Shown in pieces: positions 5,875-49,485 of a stretch of 64,000 nucleotides of DNA. Location: positions 14,384,001 through 14,448,000 of the forward strand of contig JAWMAR010000003.1 of assembly GCA_036785375.1 (NCBI GenBank), given 5' to 3'. The DNA comes from Leucoraja ocellata. Its lineage: Eukaryota. A program made the position numbers and the translations under genes. Within the stretch, counting starts at the first letter, position 1; each line of letters starts with the position of its first letter. Below the pieces are notes generated by a model that was not told where the DNA came from, made no database searches, and was given only the letters and a program-made list of their open reading frames with translations.

Positions 5875-6525
5875 TCCTTTGGCTTGAAGTTGAAAGGCAC
5901 TACTTACTGCAAATGGTGGCATGAAGTTGAAAGGCACTACTTGCTGCAAATGGTTGTTTGGATGCTTTGGCTTGAAGTTGAAAGGCACTACTTACCGCAA
6001 ATGGTGGCTTGGGAGCTTTGGCTTGAAGTTGAAAGGCACTACTTACTGCAAATGGTGGCTTGGGTGTTTTGCTTGAAGTTGAAAGGCACTACTTACTACA
6101 CACGGTGGCTTGGGTGCGTTGGCTTGAAATTAAAAGGCACTACTTACTGCAAATAGCGGCTTGGGTGCTTTGGCTTGAGGTTGAAAGGCATTACTTACTG
6201 CAAATTGTGGCTTAAGTGCTTTGGCTTGAAGTTGAAAGGCACTACTTACTGCAAATGGTGACTTGGGTGCTTTGGCTTGAAGTCGAAAGGCACTACTTAC
6301 TGCAAATGGTGGCGGGTGATTTGGCTTGAAGTTGAAAGGCACTACTTACTGCAAATGATGGCTTGGGTGATCTGGCTTGAAGTTGAAAGGCACTACTTAC
6401 TGCAAATTGTTGCATGAAGTTGAAATGTACTATTTACAGCAAATGGTGGCTTGGGAGCTTTGGTTTAAAATTCAAAAGACAATACTTACTGCAAATGGTG
6501 GCTTGGGAGCTTTGGCTTGAAGTTT
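5875..6525. repeat. Minisatellite, ~51-bp unit with ~37-bp short variants
   Basis: ggcttgaagttgaaaggcactacttactgcaaatggtggcttgggtgcttt repeated head to tail. Confidence 0.95.
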
Positions 6526-6638
6526 AAAAAAATCACCATTCTCTCTGCTGCACCTGCTGGAGGGAGGGGGAGGGACTATACAACCAGGAAGTGGTGTGCC
6601 TCACTCACTCTCTGCAAGATGGATGAAGCCAAGGGTCA

Positions 6639-7060
6639 TAGAAACATAGAAACATAGAAATTAGGTGCAGGAGTAGGCCATTCGGCCCTTCGAGCCTGCA
6701 CCGCTATTCAATATGATCATGGCTGATCATCCAACTCAGTATCCCGTACCTGCCTTCTCTCCATACCCCCTGATCCCCTTAGCCACAAGGGCCACATCTA
6801 ACTCCCTCTTAAATTATAGCCAATGAAGTGGCCTCAACTACCCTCTGTGGCAGAGAGTTCCAGAGATTCACCACTCTCTGCGTGAAAAAAGTTCTTCTCA
6901 TCTCGGTTTTAAAGGATTTCCCCTTTATCCTTAAGCTGTGACCCCTTGTCCTGGACTTCCCCAACATCGGGAACAATCTTCCTGCATCTAGCCTGTCCAA
7001 CCCCTTAAGAATTTTGTAAGTTTCTATAAGATCCCCTCTCAATCTTCTAAATTCTAGAAA
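6639..7060 (-). mobile_element. CR1 LINE 3' fragment inserted in the Helitron-like element
   Basis: LEFRRLRGDLIETYKILKGLDR; (catagaaa)n tail; splits aagggtca|cgtctctctg, which is contiguous in the first module copy. Confidence 0.9.
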
Positions 7061-7184
7061 GTATACGTCACGTCTCTCTGAGCTCTGAATGACACTGAAC
7101 AAATGTCTACACAACTGTGAGTACCCTTAATGTGGTTTGAAAATGAAAATGTTTGTTTTTTTTTTAAGTAAAAAGGAATTGCCT

Positions 7185-7530
7185 GCAAATGGTTGTTTTG
7201 GGTGCTTTGGCTTGAAGTTGAAAGGCACTACTTACTGCAAATGGTAGCTTGGGAGCTTTGGCTTAAAGTTGAAAGGCACTACTTACTGCAAATGGTGGCT
7301 TGGGTGCTTTGGCTTGAGGTTGAAAGGCACTACTAACTGCAAATGGTGGCATGAAGTTGAAAGGCACTACTTACTGCAAATGGTGGCTTGGGTGCTTGGC
7401 TTGAGGTTGAAAGGCACTACTTACTGCAAATGGTGGCTTGGGTGCTTTGCTTGAAGTTGAAAGGCACTTACTGCAAATAGCGGCTTGGGTGCTTTGGCTT
7501 GAAGTTAAAAGGCACTACTGCAAATGCACT
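7185..7530. repeat. Second array of the same ~51-bp minisatellite
   Basis: Same unit, inside the duplicated ~900-bp module. Confidence 0.95.
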
Positions 7531-7904
7531 TGCTGTTTGCACTGTATATTGATTTTAGATAAAACGCTACACTTACGGCTGTGATTTTTGGCTATCTTAC
7601 TCAGTCCCCCCCTCCACTGAGCAGGTGCAGAGAATTCTTCCTATCAATGAAAAATAAAAGTGTTATTAGTGTTTAAAAAATGTTGAGAATCTCTCTCCTG
7701 TCAATCGCGCCCTGAAAGCCACTCCTTTTCTGGTGGGAGGGGTTATAAAACGGAATAAAAAGAAGTGTGGGTGTGGCTCAGTCTCTGCATGATGGGGGAG
7801 GGAGAGGTCATGACACTGTCTGAGCTGTGAATCAACTGAACACACTGAATGTCTGCTGAACTGTGAGTTTGGTGTTTTGTGTGGTTTTATGGTGGTTTCA
7901 CCCC

Positions 7905-8205
7905 TGCATGAAACGGTATGAAGCTGCATTAGAATTTGGTGGCCTTGGACCCTGCTTGAAGTGGAATAAAACTGCACTGAATTTGGTGGCCTTGCACCCT
8001 GCTGAAAGTGGTATGAAACTGCACTTGTATTTGGTGGCCTTGGATCCAGCTTGAAGTGGTATGAAACTGCACTTGCATTCAGTGGCCTTGCACCCTGCTC
8101 ATAGTGGTAAGAAACTGCACTTGAATTTGGTGGCCTTGAACCCTGCTTGAAATGGTAGGAACATGAATTTGTATTTGGTGAACTTGCACCCTGCTTGAAA
8201 TGGAA
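7905..8205. repeat. Minisatellite, ~48-bp unit
   Basis: tgaagtggtatgaaactgcacttgaatttggtggccttgcaccctgct repeated about 6 times. Confidence 0.9.
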
Positions 8206-28170: not shown

Positions 28171-28292
28171 TACTAAATTTGTACAAATAAATATTGTTCC
28201 ACATTGTTAATCAATACCATGAAATCAATATTATTAAACTTGAAAACATATGTCCACTTAAAAAAATCAAAAGAATAGTCTGCAGATTTTAC

Positions 28293-28560
28293 CTAGACCC
28301 ATGTTGGTCCTGGGAGAATTCAACTATGTGACCGACCAGATCACGTAGTTGAAGATTAGGGAAACGGTTATTTCGGAAGTCCTCCAACAGCCTACTACGA
28401 CCCGAAGGCATGATATCAGATCTGCTGTATCGAAGACGTGAGGGAGGGAACAGTTGACTGCTAGAGCTGAACAGACTTGTTGAACCAGTTCCACTACGAC
28501 TTTTAGCTTCGGCACCAGGTGCTGCAGAAATGAACCGACCACTGCCATTTGTCAGTCCGC
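28293..28560 (-). CDS. PUM2: PUM2 coding exon (268 nt; start of PUM-HD)
   Basis: cag|GC GGA CTG...GGG TCT AG|gtaaaa; [19 protein letters not shown]...[36 protein letters not shown]. Confidence 0.97.
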
Positions 28561-29282
28561 CTGCAGTGAAAATATATGAAGCAACTTACAAGTCTGACCA
28601 TTTTCAATATGACTGATTGGCATGAAAATCCAAGTTTTACAGTAATGGAATCTAAACTTTATCTTAAATTACCACTTTCTTCTATTTCAAAAATGTTGTA
28701 TACTACCAAAGAACTGATATAAACTCTTTCCCTCCCCTTCCACACACAAAAACAACATTCATGAATTTACTCGATTTAAGATTTATTCTTTATAATTCAT
28801 TATTCAAGATATTCTTGAAGTTAGTGAAATCTAACAGGAACAATCAAAATGGAGCACTAGCAATGCAATAAAATGAACTTTAACTAAACAATATCCCAGA
28901 AATCAGCTGTATTTTTCAATGAATGAAACCCTATCAGAAGTACAAAAGCATTCAATGATAAACACATCAGTCCCGACAGCTGCAGTGCAGATGTGCATAT
29001 CAGGCAAGATTTTGTATCAGTGATTATCTTACCATAACAAAGGAAATAGAGCTTTCTTTTTAAGAAGATATAGTCTCCACACTTCTGCACATTTCATTAG
29101 TGTAGTTAAGGGGCCAGAGATAAACAGCAAAAAAAATGTCACTTTTGATAATCACAGATGGTCATTCTTTTTATTATAAGCAAAAGCCAATAACACCTTT
29201 GGCATATCAGGTGTCTGAAGGATTACTGCATTAAATGATAAGGCACAAAACTAATTTGCAAAAACAGAATTATTAAGACTAA

Positions 29283-33060: not shown

Positions 33061-33072
33061 AAAAACGTAGTA

Positions 33073-34083
33073 CAGGTGCACAACCTTTTATCCGGTGTTC
33101 CGGAAACCGAAAAACTCCGAAAACCGGCCATTTTCCCCCAGGATGTCGTCTGCACACCAAAGCTCGCGTTTGGCGCCAAACTTGACTGAAACGACCCACG
33201 GTCAACCCAGGTCTGTACTACTGTCGCGGCTGCCTCCTCCCTGGAGACCGGGGAGACACTTAAACATCTGTAAATCATTGCTTAAATGTTAGTCAGTTAG
33301 TTTGGAGGGCTTTTATGTGAAAGGGAGGGGGGTTAAAGGGGTAAACTTTAATTCTTAGTCCCCTACCTGGTCGGAGAGGCGGGGAGCGGTCAATGCCTTA
33401 CCGGGTCGCCGTGCAGTAAGCTCCGCAGCACTGTGGCCGCCAACTCCCAGCTGGGGCTGCGGGCGGCGCCGGTTGTAGCTCCGACCCCGGCAACTCTACC
33501 CCTGGCTGCGAGGTGCTCCAAATCCACCGCCGCCCGCCCGCAGCCCCAGCTCCGCGAATGTTGGGAGTCGGCGGCGTCGCAGCGCTGGGATACCAGCGGG
33601 GAGCAGGCAATGCCTTACCGGGTCGCCGTGCGGTAAGCTCCGGAGCGCTGTGGCCGCCGACTCCCAACATTCGCGGAGCTGGGACGGCGGGCGTCCGGCC
33701 GTGGGCGGCGCTGGATTTGGAGCGCCTCGCAGCCAGGGGTAGAGTTGCCGGGGTCGGAGCTCCAACCGGCGCCACCCGCGGCCGGACGGAGCCCCCAGCT
33801 CCGCGATGTTGGGAGTCGCAGACCAGGTAGGGGACTAAGAATTAAAGTTTCCCCTTTCACACCCCACCACCACCCCATAAAATCCATCCAAACTAACTGA
33901 CTAACATTTATGCAATGATTCCCCGGTCTCCGGGGAGGAGGCAGCCAGCCGCTCCAGACTTTTCAAGCCGCCCGCGCTACCTACCTAATCTACGCTAAAA
34001 ATCTTCCATTCGGAAATCCGAAAATGTCCGAAATCCGACAAGTGTCTGGTCCCAAGGCTTTCGGATAAAAGGATGTGCACCTG
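33073..34083. mobile_element. Tc1/mariner (pogo/Tigger-type) MITE with nested internal inverted repeats
   Basis: TA|caggtgcacaaccttttatccg...cggataaaaggatgtgcacctg|TA; GC-rich interior. Confidence 0.85.
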
Positions 34084-35819
34084 TAGTGCCATGTGAGGAA
34101 TTATACACTTCCACAGTAAACTAACTTTCACCGAATTTACAGTTAAATTAAAAATCAAAAATGAGCCTAGGAAATTTATTTGGCAATCTCTCCCAAAAGT
34201 AGTTAAAGGTTGGAAGGTGATTAAAATTCTGCAAAACACTCTTCCAATGTGGGCATTTCGGCGAGGATAGTTTCTGTGGAAAATGAAGGGATAGATTAGC
34301 AATTTCCCTTCATTTGGAAGCAATGCGAATTGATATTGTGGTCATACTTGGTTAGCAACAAGGCTAACCAAGTATGACCACAAAATTATCTCGAGGCAAC
34401 AGCAAAGTGTCCTAAAGTTTTCCGCACTATGAATAGTCTTTGATAATTTGGACAGGGTTCGAAAAGCAAAACAAATATATTGGGAAATAGGTTTTGAACT
34501 ATAAGAAATTGAAACGACATATTTTTTTAAATAGTATGGTTGTGCCACTTAATTTAGATCAGTGAGGTACATTAAATCAGCCTTGATAAAATCCAGACAA
34601 AAGAAGAACTTGCACCACACCCAAAAGTGAATTGTGCAGAGCAAACTAAACACACCAATCCTTTGTCCATATCTTGGTCAAACAATATTGGTAATTTCCC
34701 ACCCCCCCACCGCTTTCAACACAGAGATAGCTAGGCAGAAAAGTTAATGTTAACACTAGTCTTTTAAAAATAGCGTTTTTAATTTTTCTTTTACAAATTA
34801 CATCTGGCTAAAGATATGTTAAAATTAAGTTGTTTGCCTGTGTATTAAACATCTTTCAAACTATGATGAAAGTTTGTACAATGTCAACAGACAAGGTGGA
34901 ACAATGCGAACAATGGATATAGGCAAACAAATGTGGCTAAAGTGATCAGCCTGCCTTCCCTCAGCTATAGCTCAAGAATACAGAACAATTAGATTGTTGC
35001 ACAAAGGGACACAGTGGAAGGGATAGCATGAGTCATTATCTTTCATGTTCTAACCCAAGGATGATTTTTTGAAAATTCTCTTTATTGTGAAATAAAACAA
35101 TTTGACAAAATGCCCCAAGCCACATTTCATCTCATCTTAATTTCTTCTGGGAAATACAAGAAATGTGCAAAACACAATTGTTTATGGTTCAGGTCATGAA
35201 GCAAACTCCCTCAGAAATTCAAGTAGAATAGATTACTTTATCAAATTTCAATAAAAGTAAAAGTCCCAGATTGATTTTTGGATATGCCGATCCCTTGCAC
35301 AAAAACAAAATCTATGACAAACCTGAATCTCGTTACCTTAATATATACAATGACATGCAACCAAATATTCAATGGAAACATGCCCTTCTTAAAACTTGTT
35401 TATGGAAACTAAGCAGGCTTAAATACAAGTGAAGATGGAAAACAATGGAGTTTAGTTCATCCATTTTAGGCTACAGAAGCATCAAAGGAATTTATGGCCT
35501 ACCTCCAAAAGTGGGCTTCAGTTCTCATTTTATACCTGAATGACTCCAAGCTGCGGCGGCTCGGCTGGACGGGCAGCATCCCCGGAGAAAAGGAATGGGT
35601 GACGTTTTGGGTCGAGATCCTTCTCCGGAGATGTTACCTGGCCCGTCGTAGCGCCCCGTGTGCGTCCGCGCCAGTGGCCAGCGCTCGGCCCCCGCCGCTA
35701 CCAAACCTCTCCTGCCGAGTCACAACATCCTCCATCAAGGAGCATTGGACAGGGAGAGAGGCGCGGCCTGCGGTCCCCGGCCCACCGGGGGACGCCCCCC
35801 TCCCCCGGTGTCAAAGTTT

Positions 35820-36352
35820 GTTTCTTAAAAAGCAGATAGCAACAAAATTGTTAAAGGTAATCCATGGCAATCTTTAATTGATTCGTCAGACGTGAGTGGC
35901 AAAGATCTACAATGAGCACAAACGTTGCTCAGCGCTTCTCGGGCTCCACTCACAGAACAAAGGAATGGTAGCACAATTATAATTTTTTCTTATCAGTAAA
36001 GCACTCCTACCAAGTCTGAATATGGCATGACTGAAGGTTTTTATAGCCTTTCACAATATAGGAAAGCTGGGTTCAAATCAAGCTCATCCAATAACAATTT
36101 ATTACTCATCTCTGGAACGTCAGCTATTTTTTCAATCTTGGCTTCTTTATGGCCTTGAAAGAAGCACATGTTATTACTGCAGGATTCCATCTTAATTTCT
36201 TTATTGAAAAGACAACCTGTCCTCCATATTGTGTTCCATATAATTTAGTCATTCAGTCATGGCACCGAGCCATTCTTTTGTTCTGCTAGACCATGCGTTT
36301 GTAGAAAAATGACCCCATTTTAGATCTGACAATTAGATTTGACTATTAGCTC
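35820..36352 (-). repeat. Direct repeat copy B (gag-like segment of the mosaic)
   Basis: Colinear with 40861-41238 (tttcttaaaaag.agata.caacaaaattg ... gatttgactattagctc); copy A carries internal deletions. Confidence 0.85.
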
Positions 36353-36565
36353 TTTCATTCCCTCATTTTTATCAAACATGATAACATTCACAGTCCTCGG
36401 TAGGTACACACAATGGTCGCAAGTATTAGAACAATGATTAGCCGAATGATATAGCCATAATGTATCACAGTACCCCAACGTCCACCAAACCAAAGTTATG
36501 GCTACCAGTTCAATAGTACCCCAAAGTCCATCAAACCAATGGTATGGCAACCATTTCTCACTCTC
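36353..36565 (-). mobile_element. Retroviral env TM-like fragment (decayed)
   Basis: WFDGLWG / WFGGRWGTVIHYGYIIRLIIVLILATIVC...SCLIK: Trp-rich membrane-proximal region plus hydrophobic anchor. Confidence 0.5.
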
Positions 36566-36569
36566 TTCA

Positions 36570-37273
36570 TTGACAACCATCCTGATGAAGTAGGGTCAAT
36601 GGATCAGGTGCGACCTGTAGGCAGTGTAATCCTTTCAGCCGATATTCTGGTTGTGCCATAAAGTTCTCACCTGTCCGAGGGTGTTGCCAGTCTCTTCGTA
36701 GATCGTTGCACAGGTGAGGTGCTCCCCCCCTCTCATCCTGTGGTGGGGTTTATCACCTTGATCTAGACGCTAGCTTATCCGTAGGTTCTCTTCCCAGTAG
36801 GTTTGGTTGGCCTACTTTCACATCACCACGTAGAAGCAGCTGCTGGACTGGATGCCACAGACAAAGCCAACATAATTATGATCTGTGTTGACATAGAAGG
36901 TGCCACTGAAGTTTATGACGTTGAACTCCTCAAAACCGACAGTAAGGCCAGGGTCAGAGTTGGCGGTCTGAAGTAACTCCCTGCCCTTGTTGCGCACTAC
37001 CCAGTTAGGAACGATCTGCATCGTACCCTTTGGAACTTCCTCAGGTCAGTCTCACTGATGGGGCTGTTCTCTGGGCATACGTCATGGATATCTGGGATGT
37101 TGTTGTCAAAGTCGTCCTTGTTGGCACCTCCTTTGCTGTCACCATTGACATCTGGTCAGGGTTGGGAACAAAACGGCAATTGACTTCTCATCAGAAACGC
37201 CATCACTGCCATCCTCATCACACTGATTACCCACCAGGTCTGAGTCATTGTCTTCCTGGATAGGGTTATGCAT
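36570..37273 (-). pseudogene. THBS2: Intronless thrombospondin-2-like fragment (type 3 repeats + C-terminal domain)
   Basis: [74 protein letters not shown]...[37 protein letters not shown]; stops and frameshifts. Confidence 0.88.
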
Positions 37274-37275
37274 AG

Positions 37276-37435
37276 TCTCTTTCAAGATGATCTGTTTTAA
37301 AATGTTCAGCTTCTCCCCGTCTAGACCCTTGGTCATACGGTAGAGCTCAAAATGCTTCAAAATTGTTGATCAAATGTGGTTTGTCTTTCTGAAGTTGTGA
37401 CCAAAGGCTTTGCACTACCTCATGATCTGTAAAGA
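37276..37435 (-). pseudogene. Probable RAB44/CRACR2 (EF-hand/coiled-coil Rab) family fragment
   Basis: With frameshifts reads FTDHEVVQSLWSQLQK/KPHLINNFEAF/LYRMTK, like the LW.QL....P.L..N...FL..M motif of the family. Confidence 0.5.
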
Positions 37436-38200
37436 TGTTCTTTCTTCTGTATGGATCAGCTTTACATGTCATTGGAGGCAGCGATCAATCAGAAACACCT
37501 TGTTACCTCCTGGGTGGGGGCAAAGTCTTTCACGCACCTCTTCATGCTGCTCTTTTATATGTTTAAGTCAGTCAACTCCTTTGTAAACAGCACAGCAACC
37601 CTTATACTGACATCGATACATGGTGAGGAAATCTTCCCTTTCCAAGTTTGGTTTACGGCCATGTTTTTGTTCAGATTGTTTCTTCACATCCTTAATACTG
37701 CACTTCTTAACTGGTAACTTACACTTCTTCTTCCAATATGGTTCAAAAGACTCATCTGAATAACCATTCTAAACTTTTGTTTCTCTGTCATCTTCACTTG
37801 ATAAATACCTTTCAGAAAGATCACTGGACTCCAATCCATCCACAACATCATTTCTTATAGAACAAGATGCTACATTGCAGTTAACTGTTTTTCTTTTCAC
37901 ATCAAATGGTTGAGTTTCATCTTGTACCTGAACTTTTTCCCAAGAACCCTCTATATATTCAGGATCTGAGCACAAGAACATATCCTTCTTCAATGAGGAT
38001 TCCGAGTTGTCCACATCCACTGACCGCGAAGTGCTTCCACTATATGTACAAGTGTGAAAGTCTGCTAACATGGGGACAAGTTGATGCTTCGCAACATTAT
38101 CACCCTCACCATTTTCAGCCACTGTTCCATTCCGAGACAAAAGGGTTATTGAACCACCCAGAACTTCCTCCATTGAGTCCTTATTTCTACTGGATGGGCA
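37436..38200 (-). pseudogene. ZNF276: Intronless ZNF276-like fragment
   Basis: SDLSERYLSSED..., YSDESFEPY, EREDFLTMYRCQYKGCCAVYKGVD*LKHIKEQHEEVRERLCPHPGGNKVFLIDRCLQ*HVKLIHTE match ZNF276 zinc fingers 1-2. Confidence 0.85.
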
Positions 38201-39021
38201 CTGTCACCTCATTCAAAACAACGCTGCGACTTGAATGCATGTCCATATAACCATATAACAATTACAGCACGGAAACAGGCCATCTCGACCCTTCTAGTCC
38301 GTGCCGAACGTGTCCAGGATGTAACTGTGGCAAAGTGGAAACCTGCCTCACCACAACACCAACTAGCTTTTTGCCCTCTGTTATCAGTTCTGAACAGTCC
38401 TTCCAATTGCTAGGATTCTGCCTGATTCACCTCTACCCCATTGCAGACATTGGACTTTGTCTCTGGAACTAGTGTGCTATAATGCTCAGAACTATATTCT
38501 CCATACTAACCTTTCCCTTGCTCTACCCATTTTAGGTGAACCTGACTGGATTGCATTTATTCATGTTAATCCTTTGTGTCTTACTGACATTGAAAATGGG
38601 TGCAAGATTCTTTAGACTGATCATTTAGCTGTTTAATAACTGTTAACTAGGTTCCTGCTTAATTAATGCTTCTATACTTAGCTGATTTGATTCAATTTCA
38701 ATAGGTTTGTTTTAATCTGTATTCTGGGTCAAGGGACATATGAACATTCAAATTGTGAGCCTTCTCAAACCGCTTCTCACATTGGTCACAACCAAATTAA
38801 AGTTCGGCTTCTGCCTTGTGCTTGGTCTTGTGCACTCCAAAATCAAGGCTTTTCAACCCCACAACCCGATTGCTCTCCTTCAGCTGCTGTGTGATGGAAG
38901 CGAGATGGTCATTTAAAGAACGGGCATTGGTGAGCACATTTCTCATCTGTTTCAGCTCGGAATGTAGCTCTGGGATAAGCTGCCACCTTCTTTTTGTTAT
39001 TTCAAGAACCTGTGGTATTGG

Positions 39022-39085
39022 ATCCATCTTGGTCAGTGTTATAAACGCAAGGACAGTTGTCAGCCTTATTCAGGACGTCTTGGTG
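39022..39085 (-). pseudogene. THBS2: Second THBS2-like fragment (type 3 repeat)
   Basis: [17 protein letters not shown], like DVFNERDNCPYVYNTDQ, which natively lies just N-terminal of the 37273 piece. Confidence 0.7.
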
Positions 39086-39169
39086 CTGGGTTGTTTCCTC
39101 AAGTCCAGCCCCTGGGCCAACCTCAGGATGAAAAGTAGGGTCAATAGCCCCATTGTCCTTACTTGGTTC

Positions 39170-39505
39170 TCCTCTATTTACAGTCAATCGTATCAGATGT
39201 CTCCAACGGGGGTAATCTTCAAACTTCACGGCGGTTGATGTCGTAGTAGCACCTCGTATAGTCCCCTCCAACAGAGTCCCAATTTTGTCCGATCCCAGTA
39301 GTATGGTCTGTGTCTGTGTTCAACTGACAGTGGCTTCTGCATTTTCACCCCCTGTGAATGCAAGACTGACAAGGTTGTGCTTAATTGCTGTGCGTATGTA
39401 ATTAATTCATTGCTGTGGTCATAACTAACTTCCACACTCTTTAGTGTCCTATTCATTCCCTCCACTAATCCAGAATTCTACGGGTGGTGGGGGATGTGAG
39501 ATCAC
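39170..39505 (-). mobile_element. Retroviral integrase fragments (core end + GPY/F C-terminal domain)
   Basis: HIPHHP*NSGLVEGMNRTLK; WRGLYEVLL/TSTAVKFEDYPRWRHL, gamma/epsilon-retrovirus-like. Confidence 0.8.
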
Positions 39506-39509
39506 TCTT

Positions 39510-40313
39510 TAACTACCTATAAGGCAGACCCTTTGAAAATAGATCATTATTTAAAAAAAAATCCCAATTGTTCCAATCTATCTCCCCAAATTTACAATGT
39601 CAAATGAACAGATTTTGTTCTAAGATAAAGGCATCTCCAATCTCATCTGACACATCTACCTGAATGCTACGTGGCCATCATGGAATTCAGGTCTCTATTT
39701 GAACTCAATTCAAAAGGTAAGAAATAGGAAGAAAGTATACTTAAAGTTAAGAGAAAACAAAGACTAAACAATTAATTTTCATAATTGCAAGCTCATGCAA
39801 TGATATCCTATTTCATCTGACACGGACCATTTCATCAAAATAAGAATATATAAATATAGCCTGGACTGAATGACAAGTATCCCGATAGGCTTTGAGAGAA
39901 ATGAAACATACACAGCAAAATCCCGAACACAGTAGTAGCTGCCAGTTTCTTGGCAACATAGTCACGAAAAAAAACAGTGAACTCTCTAGTTAGACATGAA
40001 ACAGAACTTGGATTAGTGACAACTCAAAAGAACATGGAGATCTGTCTAATTAGATAAGAGCCAGAACTTGGATGAGTGATAACTTGAAAGAACATTTTAG
40101 AATATTTTTTAGAGAGCTTTTGGATTTGTAACAAATACCACCCTTCGAACATTGAAAGAAAACTAGTACAAAACTAGTACAAAAACAGGCAAAATATACA
40201 TCGGGTATCCAAGAGGAGTTAGCCAAAGTTACGCAGCCCCTCACGCTTCCAAAATAAAATCACGCAAAACATTAGAGACGTCTCTCTATATTAACTTTAC
40301 ATCCCCCTCCCTT
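39510..40313 (-). mobile_element. Candidate polypurine tract and LTR start
   Basis: Minus strand AAGGGAGGGGGA (40313-40302) directly followed by TGTAAAG; far end of the LTR not determined. Confidence 0.45.
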
Positions 40314-40860
40314 GTCTGACAAAAGCCGTTCTGTTTAAAACAGTCTTTGTTTCTGTGGGGATCAATTTGCAGAATTGATGCATAATTAGCAAGCTAGGAA
40401 ATTCCACTGGGACTTTGTGAACGGGGATTGGTACGCTTTGCAAAAGTTGTCTTCTGTTGGAGTTGCTAATTTAAAATGAAAAAAGGAAGTAGTTTAACGT
40501 AATGGTGGGCGGGCTAATGTTCAAAATGGGGGTGGTCTGAGCTGTGATTGGACAGTGATCCAGATTGTGATTGCAATATTTAATTGCATTATTCTATACA
40601 CAGGGTCACCATTGCCAGACATAGGGTCTCGAGAGGACCTCGAGAGGACTTACCGGTACCGGCTTTGTTCGCTGAACTCTTATCAGCACTTTCTTTCTCT
40701 GCCTTAGCCATTATCTCCTATTCCTCTGCCCACTGGCTTTCCATCTGTAATACTTTCCATTCTTTTAAAAGTTCTGTCTTCATTCCACAATTCAATCCCT
40801 TTTTTACGAGCATAATCCATCCAACGCCTATCTCTGCCGACTACAACCAAATTTCAGTTT

Positions 40861-41238
40861 GTTTCTTAAAAAGTAGATAACAACAAAATTGGCAATCTTT
40901 AATTGATTCGTCAGACGGGAGTGGCAAAGATCTACAATGAGCACAAACATTGCTCAGTGTCAGGCTCCACTCAAATCAAGCTCATCCAATAACAAGTTAT
41001 TACTTATCTCTGGAGCGTCAGCTATTTTTTTCAATCTTGGCTTCTTTATGGCTTTGAAAGAAGCACGTTATTACTGCAGGATTCCATCTTAATTTCTTTA
41101 TTGAAAAGACAACCTGTCCTCCATATTGTGTTCCATATAATTTACAAAAAGTCACAGACTTGGCATCGAGCCATTCTTTTGTTCTGCTAGACCATGCTTT
41201 CGTAGAAGAATGACCATTTTTGATTTGACTATTAGCTC
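40861..41238 (-). repeat. Direct repeat copy A (gag-like segment)
   Basis: Deleted derivative of 35820-36352; coding-like frame continues toward ~40600; gag identity is tentative. Confidence 0.8.
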
Positions 41239-42842
41239 CTTCACCGGAAGTCTGGCTGTAGCCGGTGTCGCGCCCCTCCTGTGCAGGCGGCCAAGCCCGG
41301 CCCGACACTTCCCGGCCATGGACGGGACACCCGGGGGAGAACAGGGAAGTCCCAGCAGCGGCTTGGCGGCGCCCGCGACCAGACCCCACGGAGCTGGGCA
41401 TGTGCCGGCGGAATACCGAACTCGCTTATAGGCCACAATCAAATAATCCATGATCTTCCTGAAGGCTCGAGGGCCATATGGTCTTCTCCCAATTCCCTTT
41501 ATATGTTTTTAGAGTAACTTTGTGTTTCACATTATACACAATTCATACTAAAAGAGTGAGTGAACTGTTAGAATTATATTTAAGTTTGAAAGCTATCAGG
41601 GATAGGGTACATTGCACAATGCATCTATGGATTTCAAAGAAAAAGACTAAGAACTGTTGATTGGGAATATCAAAGGGCAGTTAGGAAGTTACATTTCAAA
41701 GGCAACCCAATATAATAAAGGCATGTTTATTATTTTGAGCCACATTCAAAACTGAAAGACTATGGAAAATTAAAAACTTGGAAAGATATATTAGCCATAA
41801 TTCTAACACACAAATGGTTTCAATACAATTTCAAGAAATGGTTAACTACAAGAAAAAAAACATGAAATCCATGTATTGAAATATAATCTGTGGTTGAAGC
41901 ATAAGAAACCGTTCCTAACATCTTGTATTCAAAGCATTTATCCTGCTTATCTGTGGCATCATTCCATCAGAATCTCATTGCTGCTTTGAAGGAGAAATAA
42001 TGACAATTCCTTCTGAGAAAATTTACAACACAGGAATTGCTTGCATGAGCTGGATAAAGCTATCCACCTAAATCCAGCATAAGGTCTATAGTCTTGGTCA
42101 GGGTTCTTCATGGAAACATCCAAATACTGTTTAAATGTGACAAGGGTTTCTGCCTCCACCGTCCTGTCAAACATTGAGTACGGCCTCTTATCTCCCATAA
42201 ATCAATCACTTTAAACCTCTGCCCCTTTTGTATCCAACCTCTTTGTTAAAGGTGACAAGTTGCTCCTATCTACTGTCTTTTGGACCCTCAAAAGTCAGCC
42301 TCTTCTTTTTCAAATAAACCAACCCATACATCCCATTTTTTCCCACAAAGTTAAGATTTTCAGGGCCTGGAAACATGTTTGTAAATTGCCCCTGGTGACC
42401 AGACATATTTACAAGTGCTTAAGCCATGAGCACTTCAAGAAAGAAAATGTTAACCACAACATTTTCACTGACTTAAATATAGGGAAAGCTGTCTGTTACC
42501 CAGAGATATAGGTTTTTAAATTAACTGAATTTCATAAAATAATTAACTTCTCTTGCTTTCACAAACAAGAGAGACTGACAATAATCGGTGTTCAAAACTA
42601 AGACTACGTGCCAAAGCATTCAACAAGTAATAACAAAATAACATGAATGTTTGATCTGGCTTATTTCTATTACAGGCAACCATAAATACTGCAAATTGCA
42701 AGTGAACACAGTATATTTAAAATATTAAAAAAGACATGGCAATAATTCCATGGACAAACCATTGAGCTAGAAGACATTACAATGGCCAGTGCCAAAATCT
42801 AGGTAAATTAACATAACATGCTCATAAACACAGGGTATGAAT

Positions 42843-48817: not shown

Positions 48818-49349
48818 AGTCTCATAATGGCTGCTTTGACTTTCATTGGCACAACTTTGGTCCTCATGTTGCTAAATAGCCAAAACAAAGTGTCCAAAGG
48901 GGATGGAAAGATTGGAGGAAAGACTAGGTGCTGAGAGCTCTCTTATACCTGCATTAAGGAGGCAATTAACCTGAACAATTACAAACACCTGTGAAGCAAT
49001 GTGTCCCAAACATTACGATGCACTGAAATGGGGGGGGGGGGGAGGACTATGAATAAACACAGCTGCAATTTCTACATGGTGAAAGCAAAATGTATAAAAA
49101 TGGCCTTTATTAAAGATGATTTTTTTCTATTACAAATCTCAAATTGTGGAGTACAGAGGCAAATAAATAAATGATGGGTATTTGTCCCAAACATTATGGA
49201 GGGCACTGTAAATCTATCAGATCACCCCTTAGTCCCCTTCACCGAGGGAAACTGCACTCTTCCAGGAATTATTCCAGTCAGTCATGATAGAGAGAAATGC
49301 AAATGTTTCAACAAGGCCTCTCCAAAAACAATGCAACAAATGCATATAC

Positions 49350-49485
49350 CTGGCAATCCTGTAGCAAGGCCTTGACTGAAGGCAAGAGCTGAATTGGTTG
49401 CAGCAGCTGCTGCCATTGAGTCAGCTTGTTGACCCTGCTGACCCTGATTTGGAGTGAGTGGGCGCTGATTGCCACCTCGTAGAAC
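49350..49485 (-). CDS. PUM2: PUM2 coding exon (136 nt)
   Basis: tag|GTT CTA CGA...TTG CCA G|gtatat; [45 protein letters not shown]. Confidence 0.95.

Follow-up and report, generated by a model that had tools for sequence, protein, structure and literature searches.

A retrovirus-derived LTR element carrying nested pieces of four host mRNAs in an intron of a skate Pumilio gene

We analysed a 64,000-nucleotide stretch of the Leucoraja ocellata genome (contig JAWMAR010000003.1, positions 14,384,001 to 14,448,000; the window). Window positions 35809-41243 (minus strand) are one copy of a multicopy, non-coding long terminal repeat (LTR) element derived from an endogenous retrovirus (ERV). The copy lies in an intron of a Pumilio gene, which we take to be PUM2, between mapped exons at 49285-49485 and 28292-28585, all on the same strand. 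An earlier note, made from the letters alone, had described a mosaic of ERV and host messenger RNA (mRNA) pieces here, and such a mosaic is present on the minus strand at 35.6-41.4 kb, in the order and orientation described. With a probability of roughly 0.85, we regard the window copy as one of more than 100 copies of a non-coding skate ERV-derived LTR element in which nested, spliced pieces from four host mRNAs took the place of the env interior, likely through serial template switching by reverse transcriptase (RT), and which was likely spread by the proteins of a coding relative.

Anatomy of the element in the window

Listed in the reading direction of the element, its parts and its target are:

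41248..41430, no strand: GC-rich target sequence, 5′ half, itself repeated (read depth)
41244..41247, minus: 4-bp target-site duplication, 5′ copy; identical to the 3′ copy at 4 of 4 bases
40853..41243, minus: 5′ LTR; TG start, internal deletion of ~120 bp, decayed 3′ end
40831..40849, minus: position of the primer-binding site; motif conserved behind the 5′ LTR in other copies
40700..40835, minus: gag remnant; 40835-40764 is a 67% match to gag amino acids 114-137 of a coding relative, and most of the leader and gag is deleted
39520..40700, minus: inner stretch, family-wide; short pol remnant at ~40370-40280 (indirect), ~0.8 kb without traced origin, 60-bp tandem pair
39190..39520, minus: integrase core end and C-terminal tail, broken; matches pol amino acids 1224-1306 of the coding relative
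39085..39160, minus: env 5′ stub, signal-peptide-like; opens env in the cargo-free relatives L201, L202, L204 and L209
39023..39080, minus: THBS2 piece 1, type 3 repeat; 90% to the exon at C76:1448007-1448057
39001..39025, minus: RAB44-like stub, downstream exon (C423, near 1782480-1782500), read by eye
38831..39001, minus: BICD piece inside the RAB44-like stub, three exons joined, two inner deletions (C249:3157043-3165746)
38365..38827, minus: ZNF276 3′ part; last exon, stop and 3′ untranslated region (UTR) with a resident repeat
37437..38369, minus: ZNF276 5′ part, seven exons joined, placed behind the 3′ part (C242:684383-706607, 89-96%)
38243..38309, minus: later short insertion resembling the tail of a long interspersed element (LINE), only in the window copy
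37276..37445, minus: RAB44-like piece 2, with inner deletion; in fuller copies it resumes at the end point of piece 1
36565..37275, minus: THBS2 piece 2, type 3 repeats and C-terminal domain, six exons joined (exon mapping, Pfam)
36375..36564, minus: env 3′ stub, membrane anchor region; match to env of relatives
36358..36372, minus: polypurine tract, directly before the 3′ LTR
35809..36357, minus: 3′ LTR, 549 bp, TG...CA, preceded by the purine tract
35805..35808, minus: 4-bp target-site duplication, 3′ copy; matches the 5′ copy 4/4
35625..35804, no strand: GC-rich target sequence, 3′ half, outside the element

The two LTRs are 95% identical over 381 aligned bases (Kimura two-parameter distance (K2P) 0.049) and stand 4.9 kb apart. 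These repeats are what the earlier note had taken for gag-like segments; the actual gag remnant, at 40835-40764, follows the 5′ LTR. The polypurine tract and TG start that it had listed, presumably those near 40310, fall where relatives show a pol match, the true pair being at 36372-36357. The flanking duplication that it had sought is there, with all four bases of the two 4-bp copies in agreement at the window copy. Its GC-rich pieces exist, yet as repeat-like target sequence outside this duplication and not as parts of the element: summed depth over the 5′ half was 1361-2756, versus 7-15 in the adjoining unique intron bin. When an empty site was sought in other species, the X16 and X8 contigs (organisms and their public runs are given by code) ran from the unique intron only as far as 41409. 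Both halves of the GC-rich target (35625-35804 and 41248-41430) are repeat-like by depth, yet had almost no match among the compared loci. The joint between LTR and primer-binding site had 15 exact matches (control, 0). No primer transfer RNA (tRNA) match was obtained among 32 tRNAs or in the 20 sites sampled from 1176 motif sites; the site may resemble tRNA-Ser.

Between the LTRs, the window copy and a reference copy (L022) match the coding relative, an ERV used as a yardstick, only in gag pieces, the last ~90 amino acids of pol and the env anchor; in this comparison neither copy contained a protease, an RT or a whole integrase. The element is therefore non-autonomous and class I-like, and its LTRs, target duplications, ERV remnants and lack of RT agree with the non-autonomous ERV-derived vehicle proposed before. 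An integrase core with a GPY/F tail had also been proposed, of which the end of the core and the C-terminal tail are present and the whole core is not. The anchor described as resembling an env transmembrane subunit was correctly recognized, as 36375-36564 matches the env anchor region of relatives.

The coding relative has gag with a zinc knuckle, pol for protease, RT, RNase H, integrase and a murine leukaemia virus (MLV)-type tail, and env with TLV_coat. Its RT scored best on murine leukaemia-type structures (312 bits; foamy 184, Ty3 148), a comparison of scores for the relative's RT and not a tree. Class I (gamma/epsilon-like) features are the gag-pol-env order, the MLV-type integrase tail and a gamma-type env, with a CX6CC motif seen in relatives. 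Closer, decayed relatives (L202, L203 and L205) have the leader or the inner stretch, and the integrase tail, in common with the element and hold env in the cargo slot; MLVIN_C was detected in L203. Related ERVs with long open pol frames occur in the same genome. A DNA search with the 0.8-kb inner stretch gave only the same ERV group (best 40 of 367 candidates), and the integrase tail used as a protein query gave no match. In a decayed subfamily of this ERV group (L241-L244, L246-L248, L251-L255 and L239), an RT fragment fills the env slot, with the integrase tail on one side and the env anchor on the other; this slot has therefore been replaced more than once.

Host cargo, nesting and joints

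The interior of env is replaced by intronless mRNA pieces from four host genes: THBS2, a RAB44/RASEF-like gene, a BICD gene and ZNF276. Each piece maps exon by exon, on the same strand and without introns, to a single-copy gene at another place in the genome. The source genes are unlinked (THBS2 on contig C76, the RAB44-like gene on C423, BICD on C249 and ZNF276 on C242), the cargo spans exon junctions of all four, and all four are sense to the element. Cargo copies differ from host exons by a median distance of 0.07-0.12, and Pfam found BicD, TSP_3 and TSP_C in 3 of the 24 frames tested. Exon-by-exon mapping, and the finding of no poly(A) at any joint, bear out the earlier description of intronless coding fragments on one strand that lack poly(A) tails; the THBS2, ZNF276 and RAB44-like identities given then trace to the source genes on C76, C242 and C423. 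The coiled-coil piece reported with them is present too and belongs to the BICD gene, an identity that goes beyond the earlier description, so four genes are present.

THBS2 was the best source among the thrombospondin loci (six exons on C76, plus a seventh). The source gene on C423 is RASEF/EFCAB4B-like by comparison, and RAB44 is the label that we assume for it. The BICD source on C249 is closer than its paralogue on C234. The ZNF276 source comprises nine exons on C242, and the ZNF276 exon of this genome matches the proteins of Amblyraja radiata and Leucoraja erinacea with 100% identity. Upstream of its ZNF276 3′ part, the window copy is without ~240-320 bp (a RAB44-like piece and one ZNF276 exon) that other copies keep. 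Two LINE tails had been proposed: one is the repeat in the ZNF276 3′ UTR piece, already resident in the 3′ UTR of the source gene, and the other, at 38309-38243, is indeed a LINE-tail-like insertion, absent from the other copies (29 compared). Two observations concern the BICD genes themselves: at L187 (C249 near 3157170) the host exon is one base shorter than in the element copies, probably through an error in the assembly, and L105/L106 (C234:2041156 and 2090458) are an inverted duplicate exon of the other BICD gene, ~49 kb apart.

Read against the source exons, the copies have the nested structure env[THBS2[RAB44[BICD]RAB44[ZNF276]RAB44]THBS2]env. The RAB44-like block stands in place of ~30 THBS2 bases, BICD stands in place of ~9 bases within a RAB44-like exon, and ZNF276 sits at a single RAB44-like point, flanked on either side by a short common sequence and accompanied by a small local duplication. 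ZNF276 is circularly permuted, the zinc-finger exons to the 3′ UTR coming first and the 5′ part, which ends at the same exon junction, following; the RAB44-like block is likewise permuted, its downstream piece leading. The ZNF276 3′-to-5′ joint lies inside exons, away from splice sites. Because the gene-gene joints lie within exons, trans-splicing is ruled out. At the 17 joints that could be read by eye, the bases common to both donors numbered 6-10 at seven, 3-4 at four and 0-1 at six. Thus 9 of the 17 share 4-10 bases, compared with 2.7% of random same-gene positions (a reading by eye).

The family and its surviving stages

Cargo is carried at no fewer than 139 places on 104 contigs, 83 of them with two or more cargo genes. 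This count pools the listed matches for three cargo pieces, with host genes removed and positions taken to the kilobase; it is a floor, yet includes haplotype duplicates. Among 50 flanks, 8 near-identical pairs occurred and most others differ. A DNA search with the element gave 117 matches with the pieces in the same order (best 30 of 5477 candidates), and the first 22 LTR bases occur exactly 238 times (control, 0), a floor for the number of LTRs. We retrieved 26 two-LTR copies, 6 with damaged ends and 20 intact (five pairs being duplicates of one insertion). In the intact-ended copies the 4-bp duplication is perfect in 13, the window copy included, matches at three of four bases in 3 and at two of four in 3, and is missing from 1; the LTRs start with TG in 19/20 and end with CA in 20/20. 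The members of LTR pairs have diverged by K2P 0.048-0.112 in 11 of 13 rows (the two remaining rows are fragments of one LTR), and the spread is therefore old. Cargo and LTRs were retroposed further as one unit in independent insertions, with the same junctions at many loci and, in most cases, a separate 4-bp duplication.

The multicopy family suspected in the earlier note thus exists, in the form of the same junctions at many loci. Recurring junctions, or the same ERV backbone with other cargo, had been named as support for a mobile family; the junctions recur, and all copies examined hold this same set of cargo, whole or in part, so that we see one stepwise-grown lineage and not a backbone with many cargos. 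A screen of 114 uncovered gaps in 86 loci for other cargo found gag pieces and LINE-like or private insertions among those read or shared; gaps in which host-locus or window sequence covered the greater part were left off its list, and a longer form of ZNF276 fell among them. LINE insertions into single copies are common, as are large deletions. In two related copies (L213 6167-6442 and L221 6039-6310), a common 270-bp unassigned sequence replaces the RAB44-ZNF276 block. Copies also cluster on single contigs (a related subfamily on C905, the cargo family on C149), which suggests local duplication.

Two earlier stages survive in the genome: cargo-free relatives, in which env occupies the slot of the cargo, and copies without ZNF276. 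The latter, in which the RAB44-like sequence is uninterrupted, were found at 6 of 86 loci in four lineages (L163; L210/L211; L212/L214; L223), in line with the repeated capture of host mRNAs put forward in the earlier note. In a cargo tree of 43 copies rooted on host exons, they fall outside a 37-copy clade (ultrafast bootstrap (UFboot) 97). Polarized sites, at which ZNF276-bearing copies have changed while ZNF276-less ones retain the outgroup base, favour the ZNF276-less copies as older by 5 to 0 in the cargo (39 shared) and by 14 to 3 in the backbone, and in the backbone tree these copies join the nearest env-bearing relative, L205. At the ZNF276 joint, L212, L214 and L223 have the base of the RAB44-like gene, from which almost all ZNF276-bearing copies differ. 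Family-wide differences from the host are lowest per site in ZNF276 (0.013-0.017; THBS2, 0.055; RAB44-like, 0.076-0.080). About 100 ZNF276 codons missing from the window copy are kept in eight loci, and in 4 of the 47 copies that span the point; this longer ZNF276 form marks one more step that preceded the main burst.

The cargo decays about neutrally and gives no sign of function. Copy-private changes have ratios of nonsynonymous to synonymous substitution (dN/dS) of 0.69-1.20, with stops in all six pieces; dN/dS is somewhat low in the ZNF276 3′ piece (p 0.014, uncorrected for transition bias). The RAB44-ZNF276 frame is open in 9 of 41 copies and in 13 of 90 control stretches (p 0.32), which is no excess. 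Two unnamed public-run proteins (P0003 and P0020) contain an open RAB44-ZNF276 fusion frame of 133 amino acids that is ~90% identical to the copies here. Two contigs of run X18, which is RNA by guess only, bridge joints, and unique intron bins are at zero depth; these contigs are a weak hint of transcription. The listed holders of cargo words included no RNA runs.

The element is also present in other organisms. Part of the cargo words occurs in public runs from seven coded organisms, in 20 of 21 rows and with shares of 0.25-0.44 in 17 rows, and four runs compared along the element covered all 30 bins. Among the contigs listed, joints are bridged for RAB44-ZNF276 in X4 and X5, ZNF276-RAB44 in X3, RAB44-THBS2 in X1, X3 and X5, and THBS2-env in X3 and X5. 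The ZNF276-less joint is present in X4 and X5 (in X5 host mRNA may account for it). The Leucoraja erinacea model XP_055501298.1 (P0017), annotated as 'zinc finger protein 276-like', contains the RAB44-ZNF276 joint and the 3′-before-5′ order; these same permuted joints make the model most likely a copy of the element.

Origin, rival explanations and known systems

The element would have started from an ERV with pol deleted and env kept. To judge from nesting alone, THBS2 would have entered env, the RAB44-like sequence THBS2, and BICD the RAB44-like sequence, followed by some spread before ZNF276 arrived. Entry of ZNF276 into the RAB44-like sequence, a further inner deletion and the main burst would have come next. 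For ZNF276 we infer, as the simplest reading, a two-pass route: the enzyme would leave the element RNA, copy the mRNA towards its 5′ end and jump to the 3′ UTR; copying would then run to the part that RNase H had destroyed, and the enzyme would return to the element RNA. Such a route would explain why exit and entry coincide. Template switching itself is inferred.

Several points weigh against this account. A crossover with a circular complementary DNA (cDNA) would leave a trace like the ZNF276 permutation. We found no coding relative with the same LTR, and the one compared has ~60% amino-acid identity to the L203 integrase tail and no LTR match. The six joints with 0-1 shared base include three family-wide THBS2 deletions, and an automated joint test gave no excess (mean 0.43 versus 0.74 at random; 7 gaps, some misplaced by the aligner); with an excess by eye but none in the automated pass, the shared-base evidence is mixed. 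At 28 cargo sites the polarization is mixed, and the backbone tree is poorly resolved, as distant outgroups root it elsewhere (support 0.64). Finally, the 86 loci include no THBS2-only or THBS2-plus-RAB44-only stage.

We consider it unlikely, although the most plausible of the rivals, that within the same LTR family the cargo entered a master copy at the DNA level, as LINE-made or free cDNAs (including a circularized ZNF276 cDNA), and was then retrotransposed. A short repeat like the one flanking ZNF276 would result from a single circle crossover or from a target duplication, next to no bases are shared at six joints, and LINE insertions into single copies are common. However, that repeat belongs to the ZNF276 mRNA itself, the 3′-to-5′ joint of ZNF276 lies within exons and off splice sites, and all pieces are sense to the element RNA, without poly(A) and inside earlier cargo in the env slot. 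A single multi-jump reverse transcription of all four mRNAs, as in the mouse 'Super' retrocopy, with the ZNF276-less copies arising later by deletion between short repeats, seems to us a little less probable again. Direct repeats surround ZNF276, large deletions are frequent, and L213 and L221 lack the ZNF276 region yet fall within the main clade. The six ZNF276-less copies, by contrast, lie outside that clade and keep host bases at 5 versus 0 sites, the joint in L212, L214 and L223 has the RAB44-like base, and ZNF276 is the least diverged cargo.

It is very improbable that trans-splicing or read-through transcription, segmental duplication or chimeric assembly produced the mosaic. The 8 near-identical flank pairs are duplicates in the assembly, but gene-gene joints lie inside exons, most flanks differ and have a 4-bp duplication of their own, and the joints recur in contigs of other organisms and in the named little-skate protein. 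We also rejected LINE-made processed pseudogenes (no poly(A) and no target duplication for each piece), Pack-TIR or Helitron capture (introns are absent and the ends are LTRs) and a selected chimeric frame of the oncogene-transducing or Bs1-like type (near-neutral dN/dS, stops in all pieces and no excess of open frames). None of the findings named in the earlier note as contrary to its proposal, such as poly(A) or a separate duplication for each piece or a lack of retroviral matches, appeared, and gag, pol and env matches were found.

Oncogene-transducing defective retroviruses carry spliced host mRNA in place of viral genes and depend on helpers. The HERV-K capture of FAM8A1 likewise has viral genes replaced by spliced host mRNA and is helper-dependent (as cited in PMC5131818). 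Such cases hold one host gene or a selected fusion protein, whereas the skate element holds four genes with no frame kept. Serial capture by template switching, as favoured here, would be a mechanism that is already known as LTR-mediated retroposition (flies, mouse and maize Bs1). LTR-mediated retrocopies are described as arising by template switching on co-packaged mRNA, with multi-gene chimeras and re-mobilization (Tan et al. 2016; PMC5131818); the mouse 'Super' retrocopy combines four genes and an Alu-like element at a single locus, and nine fly retrocopies were re-mobilized to 18 sites. Like these, the skate element has partial, intronless mRNA from multiple parents within a broken LTR element, no poly(A) and non-autonomous re-retroposition; unlike the cases compared from that paper, it occupies more than 100 places in several species, with nested inserts, permuted mRNAs and surviving stages. 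Cartilaginous fishes lie outside its species set; for known cases, copy number and nesting may be addressed in its Supplementary Table 8 and Figure 5. Maize Bs1 is also a non-autonomous LTR element with three unlinked host genes from separate captures (PMC13317346, PMC5131818); it is a plant retrotransposon with a translated chimeric frame, whereas the skate element is a vertebrate class I ERV with four genes and decaying cargo. Our literature searches returned no report of this family, of vertebrate amplification, nesting, permuted mRNAs or surviving stages of this kind, or of a two-pass copying route on one mRNA.

What is usually seen of host mRNA capture by retroviral RT is one final product. 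In this case the parent type without cargo, an intermediate and the final form stand side by side in more than 100 copies, so order, timing and joint chemistry are directly testable. A vertebrate ERV-derived element with pieces of four host genes can amplify, as plant gene-capturing elements do, and exons of THBS2, ZNF276, the RAB44-like gene and BICD are scattered over skate genomes, at least one copy being annotated as a gene (XP_055501298.1). We give roughly even odds to a broader view: a vertebrate retroviral relic may have acted as a serial collector of mRNAs over germline rounds, taking up four, each within the previous one, with the later stages left as a datable series; permuted inserts with a common point of entry and exit would record two-pass copying of a single mRNA molecule, and skates may hold an amplified class of 'Pack-ERVs' that fills annotations with false paralogues.

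Two further repeats lie in the window. A MITE-like element with nested inverted repeats and 24-bp terminal arms occupies 33071-34085, in the same gene, and minisatellite arrays of 51-bp and 48-bp units occupy 5880-8203.

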